64,000 bases of DNA, from NCBI GenBank assembly GCA_964638755.1, contig CAZWZC010000001.1, positions 8,435-72,434 of the forward strand. The letters run 5' to 3'. A model generated the notes under the pieces. It did not search any database, was not told the DNA's origin, and saw nothing but the letters and a program-made list of their open reading frames with translations. This document shows, piece by piece, positions 424 through 36,238 of the stretch; position 1 is the stretch's first letter, and the number at the start of each line of letters is the position of its first letter. This DNA comes from an uncultured Aeromicrobium sp. (GTDB lineage Bacteria; Actinomycetota; Actinomycetes; Propionibacteriales; Nocardioidaceae). The position numbers were made by a program, and so were the translations under genes.

Positions 424-1676
424 GCTTCAAGTGTCCCATCAGCAGCAGCGCGGGCGATATCCATACGGGCATGTGCGCCGTCGAAGCTGATCTCGGCGAC
501 TCCGGCGTACGCGCGATCGCGGGCTTCGATGAGGTCGCTCCCGATTGCGGTCACCGAGAGCACCCGGCCGCCCGCCGTGACGAGCTGACCGTCGACGAGC
601 GCCGTGCCGGCATGGATGACGTCGACGCCCTCGAGTGCGTCGGCGGCGTCGATGCCGCTGATCGCGTCACCCTTGCGGGGCGCCTCCGGATAACCCTCAG
701 CTGACATCACGACGGTGACCGCCGACTCGTTGCGCCACTGCGGCATGCCGACCTCGCCGAGGACACCGGTCGCGGCGCCGTTCAGCAGAGCCGAAAGTGG
801 CGTGCGGAGAACGGCCAGCAATGCCTGTGTCTCAGGGTCGCCGAAGCGGGCGTTGAACTCGATCACGCGCGTCCCCCTGCTGGTGAGCGCAAGCCCGGCA
901 TAGAGCAGACCCTGGAACGGGGTGCCGCGACGAGCCATCTCCTGCACGGTCGGCACGAGCACCCGGCGGCACACCTCGGCGACCAAGCCGTCGGGAGCCC
1001 AGTCCAACGGTGTGTAGGCGCCCATGCCGCCGGTGTTGGGTCCACCATCTCCGTCGAGTGCTCGCTTGAAGTCCTGCGCCGCCTGCAGCGGCAGGACGGT
1101 CTCACCGTCGGTGATGGCGAACAGGGAGACTTCGGGCCCGTCAAGGTATTCCTCGATGACGACACGTCCGCACGCCGCCGCGTGGTCGAGCGCCGCCTGG
1201 CGATCTTCGGTGACGACGACGCCCTTGCCTGCTGCCAGCGCGTCGTCCTTGACAACGTACGGCGGGCCGAACGCGTCGAGCGCGGCCTCGGCCTGTTCGG
1301 CGGTGTCGCACACGTGTGCCATCGCCGTCGGAACCTCGGCCGCAGCCATGATCTGCTTGGCAAACGCCTTGGAGCCTTCGAGCTGCGCTGCTGCTGCGCT
1401 GGGGCCGAAGCAGGCGATCCCGACCGCGCGAACGGCATCGGCGACACCGGCGACCAGAGGTGCTTCAGGTCCGACGACGACGAGATCGGCGCCGAGCGAC
1501 AGAGCAAGAGCGGCCACCGCATCGCCGTCGAGCTGATCCACGTCGTGGAGCTTCGCGACCGTGGCGATGCCGGGGTTGCCAGGGGCCGCGTGCACCTCGG
1601 TGACGTGCGGATCGCGCGACAGCGCAAGCGCCAGCGCGTGCTCACGGCCGCCCGTACCGATGACCAGTGTCTTCAC
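420..1676 (-). CDS. purD: phosphoribosylamine--glycine ligase
   Basis: GxGGREHAL, APGNPG, LEGSKAFAK, GPNTGGMGAY and EFNARFGDPE motifs. Confidence 0.97.
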   Translation of the reverse strand: MKTLVIGTGGREHALALALSRDPHVTEVHAAPGNPGIATVAKLHDVDQLDGDAVAALALSLGADLVVVGPEAPLVAGVADAVRAVGIACFGPSAAAAQLEGSKAFAKQIMAAAEVPTAMAHVCDTAEQAEAALDAFGPPYVVKDDALAAGKGVVVTEDRQAALDHAAACGRVVIEEYLDGPEVSLFAITDGETVLPLQAAQDFKRALDGDGGPNTGGMGAYTPLDWAPDGLVAEVCRRVLVPTVQEMARRGTPFQGLLYAGLALTSRGTRVIEFNARFGDPETQALLAVLRTPLSALLNGAATGVLGEVGMPQWRNESAVTVVMSAEGYPEAPRKGDAISGIDAADALEGVDVIHAGTALVDGQLVTAGGRVLSVTAIGSDLIEARDRAYAGVAEISFDGAHARMDIARAAADGTLEA

Positions 1677-1688
1677 AGTGATGCCCTC

Positions 1689-2972
1689 TCAGAGCAGGTC
1701 ATGGAGCACGATGGTCTGTTCGCGATCAGGACCAACGCCGATCGTGGAGAACCGGGCACCCGACATCTTCTCAAGCGTCCTGACATAGTCCTGCGCGGCT
1801 TGCGGGAGGTCGGCGAACGTACGCGCCGCTGAGATGTCCTCGGTCCACCCGGGGAAATATTCGTAGATCGGCTTGGCGTGGTGGAAGCCCGTCTGCGTCA
1901 TCGGCATCTCGTCGACCCGCTGCCCATCCACCTCGTACGCGACGCACACCGGGATCTGCTCCCAGCCAGTGAGCACGTCCAGCTTGGTGAGCACGAAGTC
2001 GGTGACGCCGTTGATGCGAGCCGCGTAACGGGCGATCGGTGCGTCATACCAACCGCATCGTCGCGGGCGACCGGTCGTCGTGCCGAACTCGGCGCCGTTC
2101 TGGCGCAACCGCTCGCCATCGTCGTCGAACAGCTCCGTCGGAAAGGGGCCTTCGCCGACGCGGGTCGCATAGGCCTTGATGATCGCGATGACCCGGGTGA
2201 TCTCGGTCGGCGCGATGCCCGATCCGGTGCACGCGCCACCAGTCGTCGCCGATGAGGAGGTCACGAACGGATAGGTGCCGTGGTCGACGTCCAGCAGCGT
2301 TGCCTGTCCGGCCTCGAGCAACACCGTCTTGTTGTCAGCCAACGCCTCGTGCAGCAGCAGCGCGGTGTCGGCAACCATCGGTCGGAGCCGGTCGACGTAC
2401 GACAACAATTCCTCGACGATCTCATCGACACTGGCGGCGCGTCGGTTGTAGACCTTGGTGAGGATCTGGTTCTTGAGCTCGAGCGCGCCCTCGACCTTCT
2501 GCCGCAGGATCTTCTCGTCGAACAGGTCCTGGATGCGGATGCCGAGGCGGTTCATCTTGTCGGCGTATGTCGGGCCGATGCCGCGGCCCGTCGTACCGAT
2601 CTTGCGGCTGCCTAGGAAGCGTTCGTTGACCTTGTCGAGCGTGCGGTTGTAGTCGGCGATCACGTGCGCGTTGGCGCTGACGACCAGCTGGGAGGTGTCG
2701 ATCCCGCGCTCCTCAAGACCGTCGATCTCGTGGAAGAGAACCTCGAGGTCGACGACCACGCCATTGCCGATCACGGGCACGCAACCGGGACTGAGGATGC
2801 CGGACGGCAGGAGGTGGAGCGCGTACTTCTGGTCACCGATGACGACGGTGTGCCCGGCGTTGTTGCCGCCGTTGAACTTCACGACGTAGTCGACGCGGCT
2901 ACCGAGCAGATCAGTGGCCTTGCCTTTGCCCTCGTCACCCCACTGGGCTCCGACGATCACAACAGCAGGCAT
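1689..2972 (-). CDS. purA: adenylosuccinate synthetase
   Basis: [19 protein letters not shown] and [12 protein letters not shown] motifs. Start moved to MPAVV (2972). Confidence 0.97.
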
Positions 2973-3048
2973 GGGATGCACCACCCTCACATGCGACAAG
3001 CCCCGGTCTTAGGGGGCTCTTACCGGCGCAGTCTATCCGATTGCGACG

Positions 3049-3582
3049 TCAGCTGGACTGGCGCGCACGGTACGCGGCGACTGCGCCGCGATTGCCGCAC
3101 GCGGTGCTGCAGAACCGTCGTGACCGGTTGCGTGACAGGTCGAGAACGATGCCCTCGCAGTCATCCGCGGCGCAGATGCCAAAGCGTGAGAGCTCGTCGG
3201 CTCGGACCGCATCGATCATCGCCATGGCTGTCTCAACGACGATCCGTGTGTGCAACGGCTGATCATCTGCGGTTGCGTGCAGATGCCAGTCGGTGTCGCC
3301 GTGCCGTACGAGGCGGGGCACCGCTCGTGCATCGGCGAGTATTCCGTTGACGATCTCAACCACGTCGTCGCGCGTGCCGGTCAGCAGAGCCCGCAACTGG
3401 GGGCGAAGCGTCTGGACGGCGTTGAGCTCTGCCTCGTCACCCACGAGTGTGCCGGTGTAGCCGTGCTTGTCGACGAACGCAGTCAGTTCATCGGTGGAGT
3501 TCAGCGTCTCCGGTGGTTGGGCGGAGTTGGCCAGCTCGACCGCTGACAGCAACGCCGCCTCGGTGTCATGGGTGAACGCCAT
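3049..3582 (-). CDS. CGNR zinc finger / ABATE domain protein
   Basis: C-terminal CAADDC...DLSRNRSRRFCSTACGNR motif. Confidence 0.88.
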   Translation of the reverse strand: MAFTHDTEAALLSAVELANSAQPPETLNSTDELTAFVDKHGYTGTLVGDEAELNAVQTLRPQLRALLTGTRDDVVEIVNGILADARAVPRLVRHGDTDWHLHATADDQPLHTRIVVETAMAMIDAVRADELSRFGICAADDCEGIVLDLSRNRSRRFCSTACGNRGAVAAYRARQSS

Positions 3583-3583
3583 G

Positions 3584-3613
3584 TTGACACCTTACATTGT
3601 CTACTCGTAGTGT
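3584..3613 (+). promoter_or_regulatory. putative sigma70-type promoter for the EamA gene
   Basis: TTGACA (3584-3589), 18-nt spacer, TAGTGT (3608-3613), 8 nt upstream of ATG 3622. Confidence 0.5.
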
Positions 3614-3621
3614 CATGTGCC

Positions 3622-4578
3622 ATGGCAGCGTTGACTCATGACATCGCGGCGGTCCCCGCATCGCGGCTGCGCTCCGGACTCACGCTGGCGGTGCTGTCAG
3701 CGATGTCGTTTGCACTGTCCGGCCCGCTGGCCAAAGGTCTCATCATCTCGGGATGGACTGCTGGAGCCGCGGTGACCGCACGGGTACTGATCGCAGCAAC
3801 CGTGCTCCTGCTGCCCGCAGCGATCTCACTGCGCGGTCGTTGGGGCCTGTTGCGCCAGAACGTCGGGCTGCTCATCGCCTATGGCGTCATCGCCGTGGCC
3901 GGATGCCAACTGGCGTACTTCAACGCCGTCGACCGCATGGAGGTCGGCGTTGCGATCCTCATCGAGTTCACCTCACCTGTCGCGGTGATCGGCTGGCTGT
4001 GGCTCCGGCACGCGCAGCGGCCAACCCGTCTGACAGTCACTGGTGCACTCACCGCACTGGCCGGGCTGGTGCTGGTCCTGGACCTCATCTCCGGTGCCGA
4101 TGCCGACGCGCTCGGAGTGATGTGGGCTCTGCTCGCGATGGCCGGAGCAGCGTTCTACTGGATTATCTCCGCCGACGAGGACAACGGCCTGCCCGGACTG
4201 GTCCTCGCGGCAGGGGGGCTGGTGGTGGGCGGCGTAGTCCTGCTCCTTGCGGGTCTGCTCGGCATCGTTCCCCTTGCGACGAGTCGCACCGACGTCATCC
4301 TTGCGAACACCGCGCTCGCCTGGTGGGTCCCGATCCTCGGGCTGGGCGTGGTCACCGCTGCGCTGGCGTACGTCCTCGGAATCGCTGCCACCAGACGCCT
4401 GGGCTCACGCCTCGCGGCGTTCGTAGGGCTCGGCGAGGCAGTCGCCAGCGTCGTACTCGCCTGGCTACTGCTCGACGAGGCGCCGCGCGCGATCCAGCTG
4501 CTGGGCGGTGTACTGATCCTGTTGGGCGTCGTCTTCGTCAAGCTTGGCGAACCCAGGCAAGCACCACTGCCTGTCTAG
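3622..4578 (+). CDS. EamA/DMT family transporter
   Basis: About 10 hydrophobic segments in two repeats; divergent from the CGNR regulator. Start estimated at MAALTH. Confidence 0.85.
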   Translation: MAALTHDIAAVPASRLRSGLTLAVLSAMSFALSGPLAKGLIISGWTAGAAVTARVLIAATVLLLPAAISLRGRWGLLRQNVGLLIAYGVIAVAGCQLAYFNAVDRMEVGVAILIEFTSPVAVIGWLWLRHAQRPTRLTVTGALTALAGLVLVLDLISGADADALGVMWALLAMAGAAFYWIISADEDNGLPGLVLAAGGLVVGGVVLLLAGLLGIVPLATSRTDVILANTALAWWVPILGLGVVTAALAYVLGIAATRRLGSRLAAFVGLGEAVASVVLAWLLLDEAPRAIQLLGGVLILLGVVFVKLGEPRQAPLPV

Positions 4579-4590
4579 GCTGGCCGTGTC

Positions 4591-5475
4591 ATGGAGTCCC
4601 TGCTCGCGATCGCCAACGCCTCGGCCGGTTCAACTGACGACGCGTCAGTCGAGCTCGCGTTGGCGATCCTGCGCAAGGGATACGAGGTCGGGGTCGCCAT
4701 CACTTCGACGCCTGATGAGCTCGACGAGGCACTGGCTGGGCACCCGGATGTCGATGGTGTCGTGGTGCTCGGCGGGGACGGGAGCCTGCACGCGGTCGTC
4801 GCGGCGCTCCGCAAGGCGGACAGGCTCGACGGGGTCATCGTGGGGCTCATACCGCTCGGCACCGGCAACGACTTCGCGGCCGCACTTGGACTTCCCGACG
4901 ACCCAGCGCTGGCGGCCGACCTCATCGGGGGTGAGCCCGAAGCAATCGATCTGATCATCGACGGCTCGGACCACGTTGTCGTCAACGTCGCGCACATCGG
5001 CATCGGGGCCGAGGCCGCGATCGCGGCAAAGCCGCTCAAGAAGTTCCTCGGACCACTTGGTTATGTCGCCGGAGCGCTGATCGCCAGCGTCAAGGGCATC
5101 GCGACCCCCGGCGCAAAGCTGACGGTCACCGTCGACGGCTATCCGCTCCGCCCTCGCGGCTCAGTGATCCAGCTGGCAGTTGGCAATGGACGATTCGTCG
5201 GCGGTGGCGCTGCGCTGCTGCCCGAAGCCGATCCGTCGGACGGCCGACTCGACCTGATGGTCACCTACGCAGGGCGACGGCACCGGCGCTTCGTCTACGC
5301 GTGGAAACTCAGCAAGGGGGTGCATCACGAGCACGTCGACGTGATCTATCGCCAGGGCACACGCGTCGCGGTCCAAGGCGATCCGCTCCCCTGCACCAGC
5401 GACGGCGAGCTCACCGAGGCAGCGCCAGTGCACTCCTGGCGGATCGAGCCCGGGGTCCTGCAGATGTGGCGCTAG
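4591..5475 (+). CDS. diacylglycerol kinase family lipid kinase
   Basis: GGDGSL, PLGTGNDFA and GNGRFVGGG motifs. Confidence 0.88.
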   Translation: MESLLAIANASAGSTDDASVELALAILRKGYEVGVAITSTPDELDEALAGHPDVDGVVVLGGDGSLHAVVAALRKADRLDGVIVGLIPLGTGNDFAAALGLPDDPALAADLIGGEPEAIDLIIDGSDHVVVNVAHIGIGAEAAIAAKPLKKFLGPLGYVAGALIASVKGIATPGAKLTVTVDGYPLRPRGSVIQLAVGNGRFVGGGAALLPEADPSDGRLDLMVTYAGRRHRRFVYAWKLSKGVHHEHVDVIYRQGTRVAVQGDPLPCTSDGELTEAAPVHSWRIEPGVLQMWR

Positions 5476-5885
5476 CTTTTCGGGACGACCAGCTCTTCGT
5501 ACGCCTCTTTGCTCGACTCGTGCATGAACTCGCGACAGCGTTGAGCCTCGCCAGCGTCGCCGAACCTCTCCGACGCGTCGGCCAGTGCAGCGAGAGCTCG
5601 AAGGAACGGGCGGTTGGGCTCGTGCGACCACGGCAACGGGCCGTGGCCCTTCCAACCGTTGCGGCGGAGCAGGTCGAGCGAGCGGTGGTAGCCCGTACGT
5701 GCGAACGCGTAGCCCTCGAGGTCGAGGCCGTCGGCGAGGGCCAGCTCGGCCAGCGTGACCCAGGCCTGTGCCGAATCCGGATGCAGCGCGGCCACATTCT
5801 TCGGGTCGTCGCCCGCCGCAAGCGAGTCCGCGCCCGGGTCCTCAGGGAGCAGGGTCTCGGGCGGTTCACCGAACAGGTTCGTCAT
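5472..5885 (-). CDS. DUF3151 family protein
   Basis: AYAFARTGYHRSLDLLRRNGWKGHGPLPWSHEPNRPFLR is the typical family signature. The longer ORF start reads through the inverted repeat and is an artefact. Confidence 0.85.
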   Translation of the reverse strand: MTNLFGEPPETLLPEDPGADSLAAGDDPKNVAALHPDSAQAWVTLAELALADGLDLEGYAFARTGYHRSLDLLRRNGWKGHGPLPWSHEPNRPFLRALAALADASERFGDAGEAQRCREFMHESSKEAYEELVVPKS

Positions 5886-5903
5886 GCGCCCATCCTCGCA
5901 CCC

Positions 5904-5982
5904 GTCCCAAGATTCCCAGCAGGTCCCCGGAAGCTGGCACCTCACCACTGTTGCAACGTGGCAGGAGTGTCAGTTCCCTGTC
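5904..5982 (+). repeat. left 79-bp inverted repeat
   Basis: 69/79 identical to the reverse complement of 7048-7126; the outer 55 bp match at 52/55. Confidence 0.95.
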
Positions 5983-6080
5983 CGCACAGGGGTTGTCCAC
6001 GGGCGCGGTTAAGGTTGGGATGATCCACAGCGCGTCAGGGCGGGCCAACAAACCCCTCGCGGTCGACCGACCATGTCGGC

Positions 6081-7049
6081 ATGGACCACAACCTCATCAC
6101 CCTCGCCGCGACGCGCGGATTCATCACTCGGCCAGAGATCCTCGACAGCGGCTACGACGATCGCGACATACGCGAAGCAAGGTCCATCGGACTGCTGACA
6201 CGCATCGGCGCAGGGCTCTACGCGCTCACCACCACATACGCACCGCTCACGCCGGAGGAAAAGCATTTGATCAAGTGCCGGGCCGTCGCTCAGCGACTCG
6301 GTGACGGCGTCGTGCTGACGCACCAGTCGGCCGCGCTCTTGCACGGCATGCCAGTGTGGGGGCTTGCCCTGGACGAGGTCCAGCTCACCCGCCGCGATGG
6401 CAAGCGCGGACGCCACGAAGCTGGCGTACACCATCACATTGGCCGCATCAACGACTCGCAGATCGTTGAGATCGACGGTGTTCTTGCGGCGCCACCGGCA
6501 CGTGCTGTGTGGGAGGTTGCGTGCGCCGGATCGTCCGAGGCCGGTCTCGTCACCGTGGACGGCGCCCTCCACACCGAGATCGTGAGTCATGACTCGCTTC
6601 GTGAAGTCGCCCAACACTTCGCACACTGGCAGGGCTCGCGATCGGCACGCCTCGCACTCAGCCTCGCGGACGGGCGCTCGGAATCCCCGGGCGAGTCACG
6701 CGCGCGACATCTGTTCTGGCGATTCAACGTCCCTGGTCCCGACCTGCAGTTCCGAGTCGTCGGCAGAGACGGCCGCATCATCGCGCGTACCGACTTTGCG
6801 TGGGAGTTCTATCGTCACCTGGCGGAGTTTGACGGGCGGATCAAGTACGACGGTACTTTCGGGGATCCGGGCTTTGCCACCGTCTTCGACGAGAAGAACC
6901 GCGAAGACCTCATACGCGCCGAGATGTGGGGACTGAGCCGGCTGATCTGGGCCCACCTGGACGCCAGAGTCGCGGCAGCAAGCGCGAATCGACTTAAGGC
7001 TGCACTCGAACGATCACGGTCAACGTACGGGCGAACGATCATCGCCTGA
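6081..7049 (+). CDS. AbiEi-antitoxin-type wHTH protein with a C-terminal Vsr/DUF559-like nuclease fold
   Basis: N-terminal GFITR...L.RIGAGLY, THQSAALLHG, SESPGES, and RTDFAW...EFDGRIKY...EKNRED...RLIW motifs of this widespread actinobacterial family. Confidence 0.75.
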   Translation: MDHNLITLAATRGFITRPEILDSGYDDRDIREARSIGLLTRIGAGLYALTTTYAPLTPEEKHLIKCRAVAQRLGDGVVLTHQSAALLHGMPVWGLALDEVQLTRRDGKRGRHEAGVHHHIGRINDSQIVEIDGVLAAPPARAVWEVACAGSSEAGLVTVDGALHTEIVSHDSLREVAQHFAHWQGSRSARLALSLADGRSESPGESRARHLFWRFNVPGPDLQFRVVGRDGRIIARTDFAWEFYRHLAEFDGRIKYDGTFGDPGFATVFDEKNREDLIRAEMWGLSRLIWAHLDARVAAASANRLKAALERSRSTYGRTIIA

Positions 7050-7126
7050 CAGAAAACTGGCACGCCACCCTCGTTGCAACAGTGGTGAGGTGCCGGTTTC
7101 CAGGGACCTGCTGGGAATCTTGGGAC
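7048..7126 (-). repeat. right 79-bp inverted repeat
   Basis: Reverse complement of 5904-5982 with 10 mismatches. It overlaps the cargo stop codon and is flush with the fbaA TGA at 7127-7129. Confidence 0.95.
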
Positions 7127-8146
7127 TCAGAGCTTGGTGCCGGCGGAGCGCAGGTTTTCGCAGGCCTCGGCGACGCGCGCAGCCATGCCAGCCTCGGCAG
7201 CCTTGCCCCACGCGCGCGGGTCATAGAGCTTCTTGTTGCCGACTTCACCATCGACCTTGAGCACACCGTCGTAGTTGGTGAACATGTGCGCCACGACCGG
7301 GCGGGTGAACGCATACTGCGTGTCAGTGTCGACGTTCATCTTGATGACGCCGTAGTCCACCGCAGCCGAGATCTCTTCGGCCGTCGAGCCCGAGCCGCCG
7401 TGGAACACCAGGTCGAACGGCTTGTCGACGCCATACTTCTTGCCGACGACTTCCTGGGCCGCCTTGAGAATCTCCGGGCGGAGCTTGACGTTGCCAGGCT
7501 TGTAGGCCCCATGCACGTTGCCAAAGGTGAGCGCCGTCATGTAGCGACCGTTCTCCCCGAGGCCCAGCGCCTCAGCGGTTGCGAGGGCGTCCTCGGGCGT
7601 CGTGTAGAGCGTCTCATCGATGGCGCCAGAGACACCGTCCTCCTCGCCGCCCACGGCACCGATCTCAACTTCGAGGATGATGTGCGCAGCGGTCGCCTTG
7701 GCCAGGAGCTCCTGGGCGATCTCGAGGTTTTCAGCCATCTCGATCGCCGAGCCGTCCCACATGTGTGACTGGAAGTACGGCAGCCCGCCCGACTTCACCC
7801 GCTCGGTGGAGAGCTCGAGCAACGGCCTTACGAATCCGTCGAGCTTGTCCTTGGGGCAGTGGTCGGTGTGCAGTGCAATGTTGATCGGATAGTTGGCTGC
7901 GACCTCTTCGGCAAACTTCGCAAAGGCGATCGAACCGGTGACCATGTTCTTGATCGTCGGGCCGGAGATGTACTCGGCGCCACCGGTGGAGACCTGGACG
8001 ATCCCGTCGCTGCCGGCCTCGGTGAATCCCTGGAGCGCGGCGTGCAGCGTCTGCGACGACGAGACGTTGATGGCGGGGTACGCGAACGACTCGCGCTTGG
8101 CCTTGTCCAGCATCTCGGCGTAGATCTCGGGGGTCGCGACGGGCAT
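7127..8146 (-). CDS. fbaA: class II fructose-bisphosphate aldolase
   Basis: ALHTDHC, HMWDGS, GNVHGAY, FHGGSG and KMNVDTD motifs. Confidence 0.96.
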   Translation of the reverse strand: MPVATPEIYAEMLDKAKRESFAYPAINVSSSQTLHAALQGFTEAGSDGIVQVSTGGAEYISGPTIKNMVTGSIAFAKFAEEVAANYPINIALHTDHCPKDKLDGFVRPLLELSTERVKSGGLPYFQSHMWDGSAIEMAENLEIAQELLAKATAAHIILEVEIGAVGGEEDGVSGAIDETLYTTPEDALATAEALGLGENGRYMTALTFGNVHGAYKPGNVKLRPEILKAAQEVVGKKYGVDKPFDLVFHGGSGSTAEEISAAVDYGVIKMNVDTDTQYAFTRPVVAHMFTNYDGVLKVDGEVGNKKLYDPRAWGKAAEAGMAARVAEACENLRSAGTKL

Positions 8147-8203
8147 TCGTACTCCTGGTGAATGGCGGTTGAGTCACCAGTATCCCAGTCGCCGGTTCAG
8201 GGT

Positions 8204-8812
8204 CTAGACCGCGTGCGTGCGGATCCAGGCATGCATCGCAATCGCGGCGGCCGCGCCGGCGTTGATGGAGCGGGTTGAGCCGAACTGGGCGATCGACAAC
8301 GTACGTTCGCACGCGCTGCGGGCCTCGTCGCTCAGACCCGGACCCTCCTGCCCGAACACCAGCACGCATGCACGCGGCAGCTCCGTCGTCTCGATCGGCT
8401 CGGAGTCGTCGACGTTGTCGATGCCGATCACCGAGAGCCCCGCGTCGCCGGCCCAGGAGCTGAACGCCTCGACGCTGTCGTGATGACGTACGTGCTGATA
8501 TCGATCTGTCACCATCGCACCGCGTCGGTTCCAACGCTTCTTGCCGATGATGTGCACCTCTGCGGCGGCAAACGCATTGGCCGTGCGCACGATCGAGCCG
8601 ATGTTGAAGTCGTGCTGCCAGTTCTCGATCGCGACATGGAATGGGTGTCGGTGCAGGTCGAGGTCGGCGATGATCGCGTCGAGGTTCCAGTAGCGATAGC
8701 GGTCGACGACGTTGCGTCGATCGCCTTCGCGCAGCAGTTCCGCGTCGTAGTGATCGTCGACGGGCCATTCGCCCTGCCACGGTCCGACACCCGGCTGGTC
8801 GGACTCCGTCAC
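8204..8812 (-). CDS. TrmH/SpoU family RNA methyltransferase
   Basis: [21 protein letters not shown] and RSINAGAA motifs. Confidence 0.9.
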
Positions 8813-10137: not shown

Positions 10138-10261
10138 GCCGATGATTCTCGCACCCCCATTCGAATCGCCGACAATTTCGGCAAAACCTCCAACGCGGTT
10201 GGCCGAGTCGCGTAGCATTTATCCAGCAGGGTCAATGCGCTTCTGGCCGTTGGCGCCTGTT

Positions 10262-10301
10262 GTCGCCCCACCGTTTCACCCCCCGAGAACGGTGGGGCGA
10301 C
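10262..10301. terminator. perfect 14-bp stem-loop, probable terminator
   Basis: gtcgccccaccgtt / aacggtggggcgac with a 12-nt loop, downstream of the MFS gene. Confidence 0.6.
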
Positions 10302-10344
10302 TTTGTGCGCCGACGAGGCCGCCCGCAGCCGAGCTGCGCGTGCG

Positions 10345-36171: not shown

Positions 36172-36200
36172 GGCGTGCTCCTGTCGCACTCACCGCGCGC

Positions 36201-36231
36201 ACCTTCCCCGAATCGATGATTCGGGGAAGGT
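36201..36231. repeat. perfect 14-bp inverted repeat (terminator or operator)
   Basis: accttccccgaatc-gat-gattcggggaaggt between DoxX and USP. Confidence 0.7.
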
Positions 36232-36238
36232 ACCGGCG

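Follow-up and report, generated by a model that had tools for sequence, protein, structure and literature searches.

The contig CAZWZC010000001.1 of an uncultured Aeromicrobium sp. (Nocardioidaceae; GCA_964638755.1) carries a compact cassette between the gene of a DUF3151 protein and fbaA: one gene, encoding a fusion of AbiEi with a Vsr-like nuclease domain, is enclosed by two long inverted repeats, called arms here. The stretch analyzed, referred to as the window, is 64,000 nt long (positions 8,435-72,434 of the forward strand). The reading favored here, with a probability of about 0.45, is that the cassette is a resident, vertically inherited unit resembling the REPtrons and TIRtrons, in which the gene is bracketed by inverted cognate repeats and the enzyme is not of the HUH type. 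Comparison with relatives points in this direction: the arms follow the gene lineage, loss of the gene can leave a solo arm-like hairpin, and the segment between the arms can invert in place.

Organization of the Cassette

The arms, each 79 nt long, occupy positions 5904-5982 and 7048-7126. They were detected by an inverted-repeat search as 87% complementary sequences with a spacing of 1065 nt. Aligned to each other, they are identical at 69 of 79 positions, and the outer 55 nt at 52 of 55 (94.5%). This pair is the sole long inverted repeat of the 64-kb window, the runner-up measuring 48 nt at 71%, and its arm-to-arm score lies 48 standard deviations above that of shuffled flanks. Exactly one credible gene is present between the arms (6081-7049, plus strand, 322 aa). 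The right arm abuts the stop codon of fbaA (7127-7129, minus strand) with no base between, and a spacer of 18 nt (5886-5903) separates the left arm from the ATG of DUF3151 at 5885. The cassette fits precisely between the fbaA stop codon and the ribosome-binding region of DUF3151. The repeats, their identities and both junctions had been described in the first-pass annotation of this DNA; the alignment returned the same figures, and the coordinates agree.

The features of the cassette and its flanks are listed below (positions in the window; relatives are cited by locus number).

5904..5982: left (gene-upstream) arm, with its inner end 98 nt ahead of the start codon; identity to the orthologous arm of L021, 89%
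5904..5927: outer 24-nt block GTCCCAAGATTCCCAGCAGGTCCC, with a mirror copy at 7103-7126
5983..6080, plus strand: leader between the left arm and the ATG, 98 nt, no sigma-70 consensus match
6081..7049, plus strand: AbiEi-Vsr-like fusion gene, 322 aa; the last 2 nt of its stop codon lie in the right arm
6096..6665, plus strand: AbiEi part (residues ~6-195), with a winged helix (6-50) and the AbiEi C-terminal domain
6666..7046, plus strand: predicted Vsr/DUF559-like PD-(D/E)xK nuclease domain (residues ~196-322), assigned by fold match and invariant residues
7048..7126: right (gene-downstream) arm, filling all the space from the stop codon of the gene to that of fbaA; 90% identical to the L021 arm
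7054..7099: inner dyad/hairpin of the right arm, GGCACGCCACCCTCGTTG|CAACAGTGGTGAGGTGCC; its left-arm counterpart is degraded
5472..5885, minus strand: DUF3151, flanking gene outside the cassette (Pfam DUF3151, E 3e-50)
7127..8146, minus strand: fbaA, class II fructose-bisphosphate aldolase, flanking gene (Pfam F_bP_aldolase, E 4e-78)

No target-site duplication is visible, as the bases outside the arms (CTCGCACCC / TCAGAGCTTG) form no direct repeat. Searches with Pfam, NCBIfam, PADLOC and fold comparison found no DDE, HUH or recombinase domain in the cassette, and no serine or tyrosine invertase is encoded in the cassette or in the flanking genes. The first reading of the sequence, which had noted neither a duplication nor a DDE, HUH or tyrosine-recombinase motif, was therefore correct on these points. 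No gene for an AbiEii (DUF1814) nucleotidyltransferase adjoins the cassette: the neighbors are fbaA and DUF3151, and the other open reading frames (ORFs) are without support. Consensus promoter and terminator scans over 5400-8300 gave no match; the promoter and the 5' untranslated region are presumably held by the leader (5983..6080). Elsewhere in the window, two other strong local hairpins are found at 10248-10315 and 36194-36238 (stems of 28 and 21 nt). Their sequence is unrelated to the arms, and they are possibly terminators.

Arms of the Related Cassettes

Arms are also found in the relatives. A set of 22 homologues, with 25-81% protein identity, each possess an arm pair of their own, 58-129 nt long (z 12-48) and arranged in the same geometry. 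In these armed elements, the upstream arm is separated from the start codon by 46-163 nt, mostly by ~100-120 nt, and the beginning of the downstream arm ranges from 15 nt before to 46 nt beyond the end of the stop codon. The stop codon of fbaA forms the boundary of most related cassettes. Orthologues at the same site, between fbaA and DUF3151, and with their own arms are known from GCA_039537165 (81%), A. marinum DSM 15272 (64%), Aeromicrobium sp. genomes of the SMF47 type (63%) and further metagenome-assembled genomes. In total, the arm-bearing homologues occupy at least five genomic contexts: fbaA/DUF3151, ABC transporter/ccsA, M13 peptidase/polyprenyl synthase, DUF402/short-chain dehydrogenase, and a position downstream of DUF3151. 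The paralogues and distant homologues in contexts other than fbaA/DUF3151 have arms of 78-103 nt; similar repeats flanking paralogues elsewhere are in keeping with the first-pass proposal of a repeat-associated gene.

The arms fall into types that track the protein clades. Type A is found in the window, L021, L022, L034 and L241; type B in L025, L032, L036 and L045; type C in L054, L064, L082, L093 and L100; and type E in L108 and L112. The two genes of GCA_009661075.1 illustrate this association within a single genome: an A-type copy is located at fbaA/DUF3151 and a B-type copy 0.8 Mb off, each with its own arm type. Unrelated genes present in the fbaA-DUF3151 gap of other species have no arms. 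In Kribbella (L061, L076, L080, L084, L086, L088, L090, L096, L105 and L106), the homologue lies 0.7-1.4 kb upstream of DUF3151 and has no detectable arm pair: either the linkage of the gene to the DUF3151 neighborhood predates the arms, or Kribbella lost them.

Each arm is composite, built of the outer 24-nt block and an inner dyad centered on GTTG|CAAC. The outer block is identical across both arms of the window and both arms of the L021 orthologue. The inner dyad is partly degraded in the window copy and perfect or near-perfect in L022 and L034. Single-arm hairpins of the window copy fold at most marginally better than shuffled sequences; the arms of the relatives are near-perfect palindromes.

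The arms are strongly conserved. The orthologous arms of the window and L021 share 89-90% identity, compared with 44-69% for four-fold sites and 57% for the leader adjacent to the arm. Between the window and A. marinum, the arms are 75% identical between species and 87-92% identical within each genome. These identities show that the arms are under selection and, within a genome, evolve in concert. The mismatches between the two arms of the 22 elements comprise 67 sense-wobble, 62 antisense-wobble and 139 transversion positions. As no wobble bias is present, the constraint looks to be at the DNA level (recognition or conversion) and not one of RNA pairing.

This last result bears on an explanation in terms of RNA processing, by which the arms would pair in read-through RNA and a long-range stem would loop out the antisense gene between fbaA and DUF3151, forming a processing site of the rRNA/intervening-sequence type. 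The arms do adjoin the fbaA stop codon and the ribosome-binding region of DUF3151, and the gene is antisense to both of its neighbors here and at two other loci. However, the arrangement is found in both orientations and between convergent genes, and, given the missing wobble bias, long-range RNA pairing of the arms was rejected, which leaves this explanation hardly credible. Rfam has no family matching the arms or the dispersed units described below; no plasmid matches to the arms and no viral-contig matches to the arm motifs were found.

Turnover at the fbaA-DUF3151 Site

The state of the fbaA-DUF3151 gap was followed by a DUF3151 scan across 80 species. The adjacency of the two genes in actinobacteria, stated in the first-pass annotation, is seen in many of them. 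In seven Aeromicrobium-type genomes, the site is empty, with a gap of 28-126 nt, and most of these gaps contain a hairpin. The hairpin of the empty site in L041 is homologous to the outer block of the window arms (nhmmer E 9e-5). Empty sites, thus, do exist in related Aeromicrobium species. The earlier statement that removal of the unit leaves a tidy operon is only roughly right, as an arm-like hairpin is kept at the empty sites.

Arms are also found without the gene, or in excess. L033 has B-type solo arms on either side of DUF3151 (3887-3954 and 4422-4502), and L049 has an E-type solo arm. A third arm copy is located near DUF3151 in L068 (3915-3973), L093 (3847-3908) and L100 (4451-4522). 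In L071 (arm copies at 3867 and 5748), one pair encloses DUF3151 together with the nuclease gene. Since DUF3151 is bracketed by arms in several genomes, the repeat-bounded segment is not always a single gene.

Close species, with fbaA 88-92% identical, can hold different cassette lineages at the same place (protein 70% vs. 41-46%). Because of this lineage replacement, the inheritance of the cassette is not purely vertical. The same-site lineages occur in both orientations. In the pair L064 and L082, fbaA is 91% and the cassette protein 86% identical and the flanks are collinear; the inter-arm segment is inverted, with the breakpoints inside the arms. Taken over evolutionary time, the cassette is gained, lost, replaced and flipped.

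The window copy itself is an old resident and not a recent insertion, because its synonymous divergence (dS) from L021 equals that of its neighbors (0.93 for the cassette gene, 0.77 and 1.05 for the neighbors) and orthologues are present at the same site in several species. For the same reasons, a fresh insertion into a tidy operon was rejected.

A rival explanation, as framed in the first reading, is an autonomous mobile element. The arms would then be terminal inverted repeats (TIRs), and the protein would excise or copy the 1.2-kb unit and insert it elsewhere; the unit would home into a solo palindrome, or a cut-and-paste reaction would be completed by host repair. The spread of the module over at least five contexts, its presence or absence among relatives and the different lineages found in both orientations at one site are in agreement with this; solo arms could act as landing sites, and Vsr-like domains occur in homing endonucleases (PMC3424549). 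However, the gene is single or low copy, and near-identical copies at different sites were not found. The dS of the window copy, its shared site and the lack of a target-site duplication argue in the same direction, and the dispersed C-type units vastly outnumber the gene-bearing ones. We consider mobility of this kind quite unlikely. Nor does the family occur in multiple dispersed copies, as had been claimed earlier: the gene is low-copy, with one in the 64 kb and two divergent paralogues in one genome.

In L028, the closest relative in GTDB (DUF3151 93% identical), the gap (2765-4000) has nearly the same length, 1236 nt vs. 1241 nt in the window, with a different content and no homologue of the gene. 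It contains an antisense ORF of 258 aa with a faint similarity to AbiEii (E 0.04, below threshold). A decayed cassette was considered for L028 and rejected, as only ~38 nt of arm-like sequence beside DUF3151 are homologous and the interior is different. In other Nocardioidaceae, the gap holds a nitroreductase, two GAF-ANTAR proteins, a universal stress protein or major facilitator superfamily transporters (L029/L030, L043, L047/L050, L051/L065). The fbaA-DUF3151 gap is a general hotspot of gene turnover.

Dispersed C-Type Repeats

The 22-nt motif of the C-type arm, GTAACGCGGGGTTAYGGNCGCT, was scanned in the JGI metagenomes, and 80 loci were read. The motif is present in at least 120 metagenomic stretches. 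A gene of the family is found nearby in about 9 of the 80 loci; the remainder are solo units, some of them on contigs of 12-15 kb. Several copies per contig are present in some cases, and several doublets were encountered. The unit has a length of ~72 nt and a conserved consensus; 90 of 91 copies are distinct, and 22 of 90 are fully palindromic. Fully palindromic units at seven loci (L142, L146, L156, L164, L172, L179 and L194) have the motif on both strands, 54 nt apart.

The units are mostly intergenic, and many of them begin 10-20 nt past a stop codon or take up the space that separates two convergent genes. The outer motif, read as GTAAC-N5-GTTAY, has a small dyad symmetry of its own, which would suit the putative site of a dimeric helix-turn-helix protein. 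The C-type arm of this sister lineage is an intergenic repeat of soil metagenomes similar to the repetitive extragenic palindromic (REP) sequences. Dispersed units together with a flanked gene are the genomic pattern by which REPtrons and TIRtrons have been described (PMC3337134, PMC3733652). One of the contigs with a solo C-type unit also contains an FMN riboswitch (L145:8416-8546; Rfam RF00050, 90.7 bits), unrelated to the cassette.

The Encoded Protein

The only Pfam match of the 322-aa protein is AbiEi_4, on residues 6-50 (E 8e-7). The AbiEi model of PADLOC is covered almost in full by residues 6-195 (E 1.5e-15). No match was obtained with NCBIfam, nor with sequence-only searches of the PDB, using the single protein or a profile. 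The protein was further examined through its AlphaFold model (pLDDT 90.5). With Foldseek, the first two domains match 1zel (Rv2827c) and 6y8q (AbiEi) with a probability of 1.0. The last domain matches the Vsr endonuclease structures 1cw0 and 1vsr with a probability of 0.96-0.98 and a TM by target of 0.51-0.56, at E-values of only 0.09-0.36, and also the DUF559-like NGO0050 (3hrl, TM 0.61). A few family members have weak Pfam matches to MTES_1575 (0.0045) and DUF559 (0.013). Residues E205, D238, E249, D251, K255, E271, K272, R274 and E275 are invariant in 33 homologues; DUF559 proteins usually have a histidine at the place of K255. According to the model, a complete AbiEi is joined in this protein to a Vsr/DUF559-like nuclease domain with conserved acidic and lysine residues. 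The AbiEi winged helix and the Vsr-like PD-(D/E)xK domain, both proposed on first reading, find support in Foldseek, PADLOC and the weak Pfam matches of the family.

The gene is under purifying selection, with a dN/dS of 0.14 against the L021 orthologue. The family is large: a search at E <= 1e-10 gave 3,490 clusters at 50% identity, and the best-scoring matches are mostly full length. The closest named homologues are all from Aeromicrobium, and the identical protein is found on 23 contigs, with one context shared by all. Many Logan contigs with homologues have a length of 1.15-1.27 kb, the size of the cassette (P0002, P0005, P0010, P0011, P0016, P0018, P0031 and others; also L027 and L111). 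Apparently, the Logan assemblies break within the arms, which could possibly provide a cheap screen for such cassettes.

The AbiEi moiety raises the question of an autoregulated toxin or defense nuclease. The protein would then be an AbiE derivative, in which AbiEii is replaced by the fused nuclease, with another DNA, e.g., of phage, as its target; the arms would only be operators or bidirectional terminators insulating a dangerous gene. AbiEi antitoxins repress their own promoters via inverted repeats, and here the full AbiEi moiety is present. The hypervariable locus with its allelic replacement among close species, the antisense ORF of L028 with its faint AbiEii similarity at the same site, and the existence of arm-less homologues also speak for it. 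On the contrary, neither AbiEii nor another partner gene accompanies the protein, which has no phage matches and only three plasmid matches, weak and partial. Furthermore, an operator role leaves the identical site downstream of the gene unexplained, as well as the ~80-nt length of the arms, the solo arms and the dispersal of C-type units between convergent genes. This explanation is, on the whole, unlikely.

Proposed Mechanism and Significance

For the REPtron-like unit favored here, we infer a mechanism of the REPtron type. The AbiEi moiety, probably dimeric, would recognize the dyad-symmetric motifs in the arms, and the Vsr-like domain would nick at or near the arm dyads. By binding to the upstream arm, the protein would, in addition, control its own gene. 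Nicks in the repeats would promote recombination between the arms, resulting in conversion, inversion or loss, and, in some lineages, the repeats may additionally spread. The enzymatic action of the protein on the repeats is, at this stage, purely conjectural.

Several points weigh against this reading. About one-third of the homologues examined have no detectable arm pair (the Kribbella copies, L052, L071, L083 and L104), and L040 has one palindrome only; the protein can, therefore, persist without arms. Beyond its two arms, the 64-kb window yielded no copy of the window-type (A) arm, and solo arms of types A, B and E in ~450 kb of Aeromicrobium loci are located only beside fbaA/DUF3151. A dispersed family in the genome of the window is, consequently, hypothetical. 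The analogy with RAYT/REP systems drawn in the first-pass annotation finds real support in the sister lineage, whose arms belong to a dispersed REP-like family; for the window type, no extra copy appeared in the 64 kb or, away from fbaA/DUF3151, in the Aeromicrobium loci. As the dispersed C-type copies are known from metagenomes, a co-occurrence of C-type gene and repeat in one genome is an assumption. Vsr-type enzymes are hydrolytic nickases and are not known to have strand-transfer activity. Defense and toxin-antitoxin loci, too, typically show allelic replacement at a single hypervariable locus. Finally, at L125:768-2152, an IS30-family transposase gene (HTH_38 + rve, ORF 836-2119, minus strand) lies between two inverted C-type units, so that insertion into pre-existing repeats can mimic the arm pattern. 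The C-type repeats at this locus may be the insertion target of an IS30-family element, or the ends of the element may be related to them.

The case of this DDE transposase leads to the question of whether the association of gene and arms is passive, the gene sitting in, or once inserted into, palindromes or terminator hairpins that the host already had, with a protein unrelated to the arms. The hairpins at the empty fbaA-DUF3151 sites and the accumulation of REP-like units at gene 3' ends would suit such a view. However, the arm type follows the gene lineage, within one genome and across clades, and every arm forms a complete unit, the distance of which from the start or stop codon is fixed. 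In addition, the arms are far more conserved than neutral sites, and other genes at the same site lack them. A passive association is, hence, very unlikely.

In the full text of the literature, no paper was found that connects palindromic repeats, whether flanking or dispersed, with AbiEi or DUF559 proteins, AbiEi with REP, or DUF559 with AbiEi. The type of cassette is, apparently, undescribed, with the logic of a REPtron and a different enzyme, repeat and phylum. A wider proposal is tentative and somewhat unlikely: AbiEi-Vsr fusions may be a second, non-HUH class of repeat-associated enzymes, which would create, maintain or move palindromic intergenic repeats of ~70-100 nt in Actinobacteria by sequence-specific binding and nicking, each lineage co-evolving with its own repeat family and the window holding two master copies.

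REP-type repeats are among the commonest non-coding repeats of bacteria, and the sole enzyme family linked to them is that of RAYT/TIRYT, with the HUH fold. Some repeat families are without a known enzyme (PMC3733652). A large uncharacterized family, routinely annotated as 'orphan AbiEi antitoxin', here shows a REPtron-like genomic signature with an enzyme of the predicted restriction-endonuclease fold. If the enzyme were shown to act on the repeats, it would constitute a new class. A functional link would represent a second, independent origin of the symbiosis between repeat and gene, explain a class of actinobacterial intergenic palindromes and supply nickases that bind DNA sequence-specifically and whose cognate sites are known. 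Should the link be purely regulatory, a widespread annotation would still be corrected and a hypervariable site beside a core glycolytic gene described.

Comparison with Known Systems

Like an insertion sequence or transposon, the cassette has terminal inverted repeats. Unlike these elements, it lacks a transposase of the known DDE, HUH, serine or tyrosine classes, has no target-site duplication and is present in one copy in the window. The in-place inversion between L064 and L082 of a segment bounded by inverted repeats resembles the invertible segments of the Hin/Gin and Fim type; in contrast to these switches, the cassette has no serine or tyrosine recombinase, and the inversion can be ordinary homologous recombination between repeats of ~100 nt. 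The one hint in the literature is a table entry, given without analysis, in which DUF559 proteins appear as enriched among predicted inversion targets (PMC9881135).

The C-terminal domain is, as modeled, of the same fold as the Vsr/DUF559 enzymes, such as the Vsr repair nickase, with conserved acidic residues; unlike Vsr, it has no partner cytosine methyltransferase. Enzymes of this fold also include Vsr-like homing endonucleases (PMC3424549). I-Bth0305I is a Vsr-like homing endonuclease. Free-standing homing endonuclease genes share with the cassette the presence or absence at a fixed site beside a conserved gene. The cassette differs from them in the absence of an intron or intein, and flanking repeats are not a feature of theirs.

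The N-terminal 195 residues correspond to the complete AbiEi of the AbiE type IV toxin-antitoxin system (6y8q, 1zel). By analogy with AbiEi autoregulation, the inverted repeat upstream of the gene, 98 nt before the ATG, could be an operator. AbiE, in contrast, includes an AbiEii gene; here, a nuclease domain is fused instead, and a second copy of the repeat is located downstream.

The closest parallel to the reading favored here is that of the REPtrons and TIRtrons, in which a RAYT or TIRYT gene lies between REP/REPIN sequences or long double-palindromic TIRs (PMC3337134, PMC3116915, PMC3733652). RAYTs are single copy, flanked by REPINs, with clade-specific repeats (PMC3337134). The cassette differs from REPtrons in several respects. 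Where these have an IS200/IS605-type HUH tyrosine transposase, the cassette protein, as predicted, combines the AbiEi winged helix with a Vsr-like PD-(D/E)xK domain; the repeat units are longer (~72-100 nt), composite and without the GTAG tag; and the host belongs to the Actinobacteria (Nocardioidaceae), with a link between protein and repeat that we infer from genomes alone. As in REPtrons, the gene of the cassette is single-copy, vertically inherited and placed between inverted palindromic repeats, and each gene clade has its own repeat type; a genome with two genes has two distinct types. In one cassette lineage, solo units and doublets of the repeat are scattered at the 3' ends of genes; some other cassette genomes, like those with TIRtrons, seem to possess the flanked gene but no abundant repeat family.

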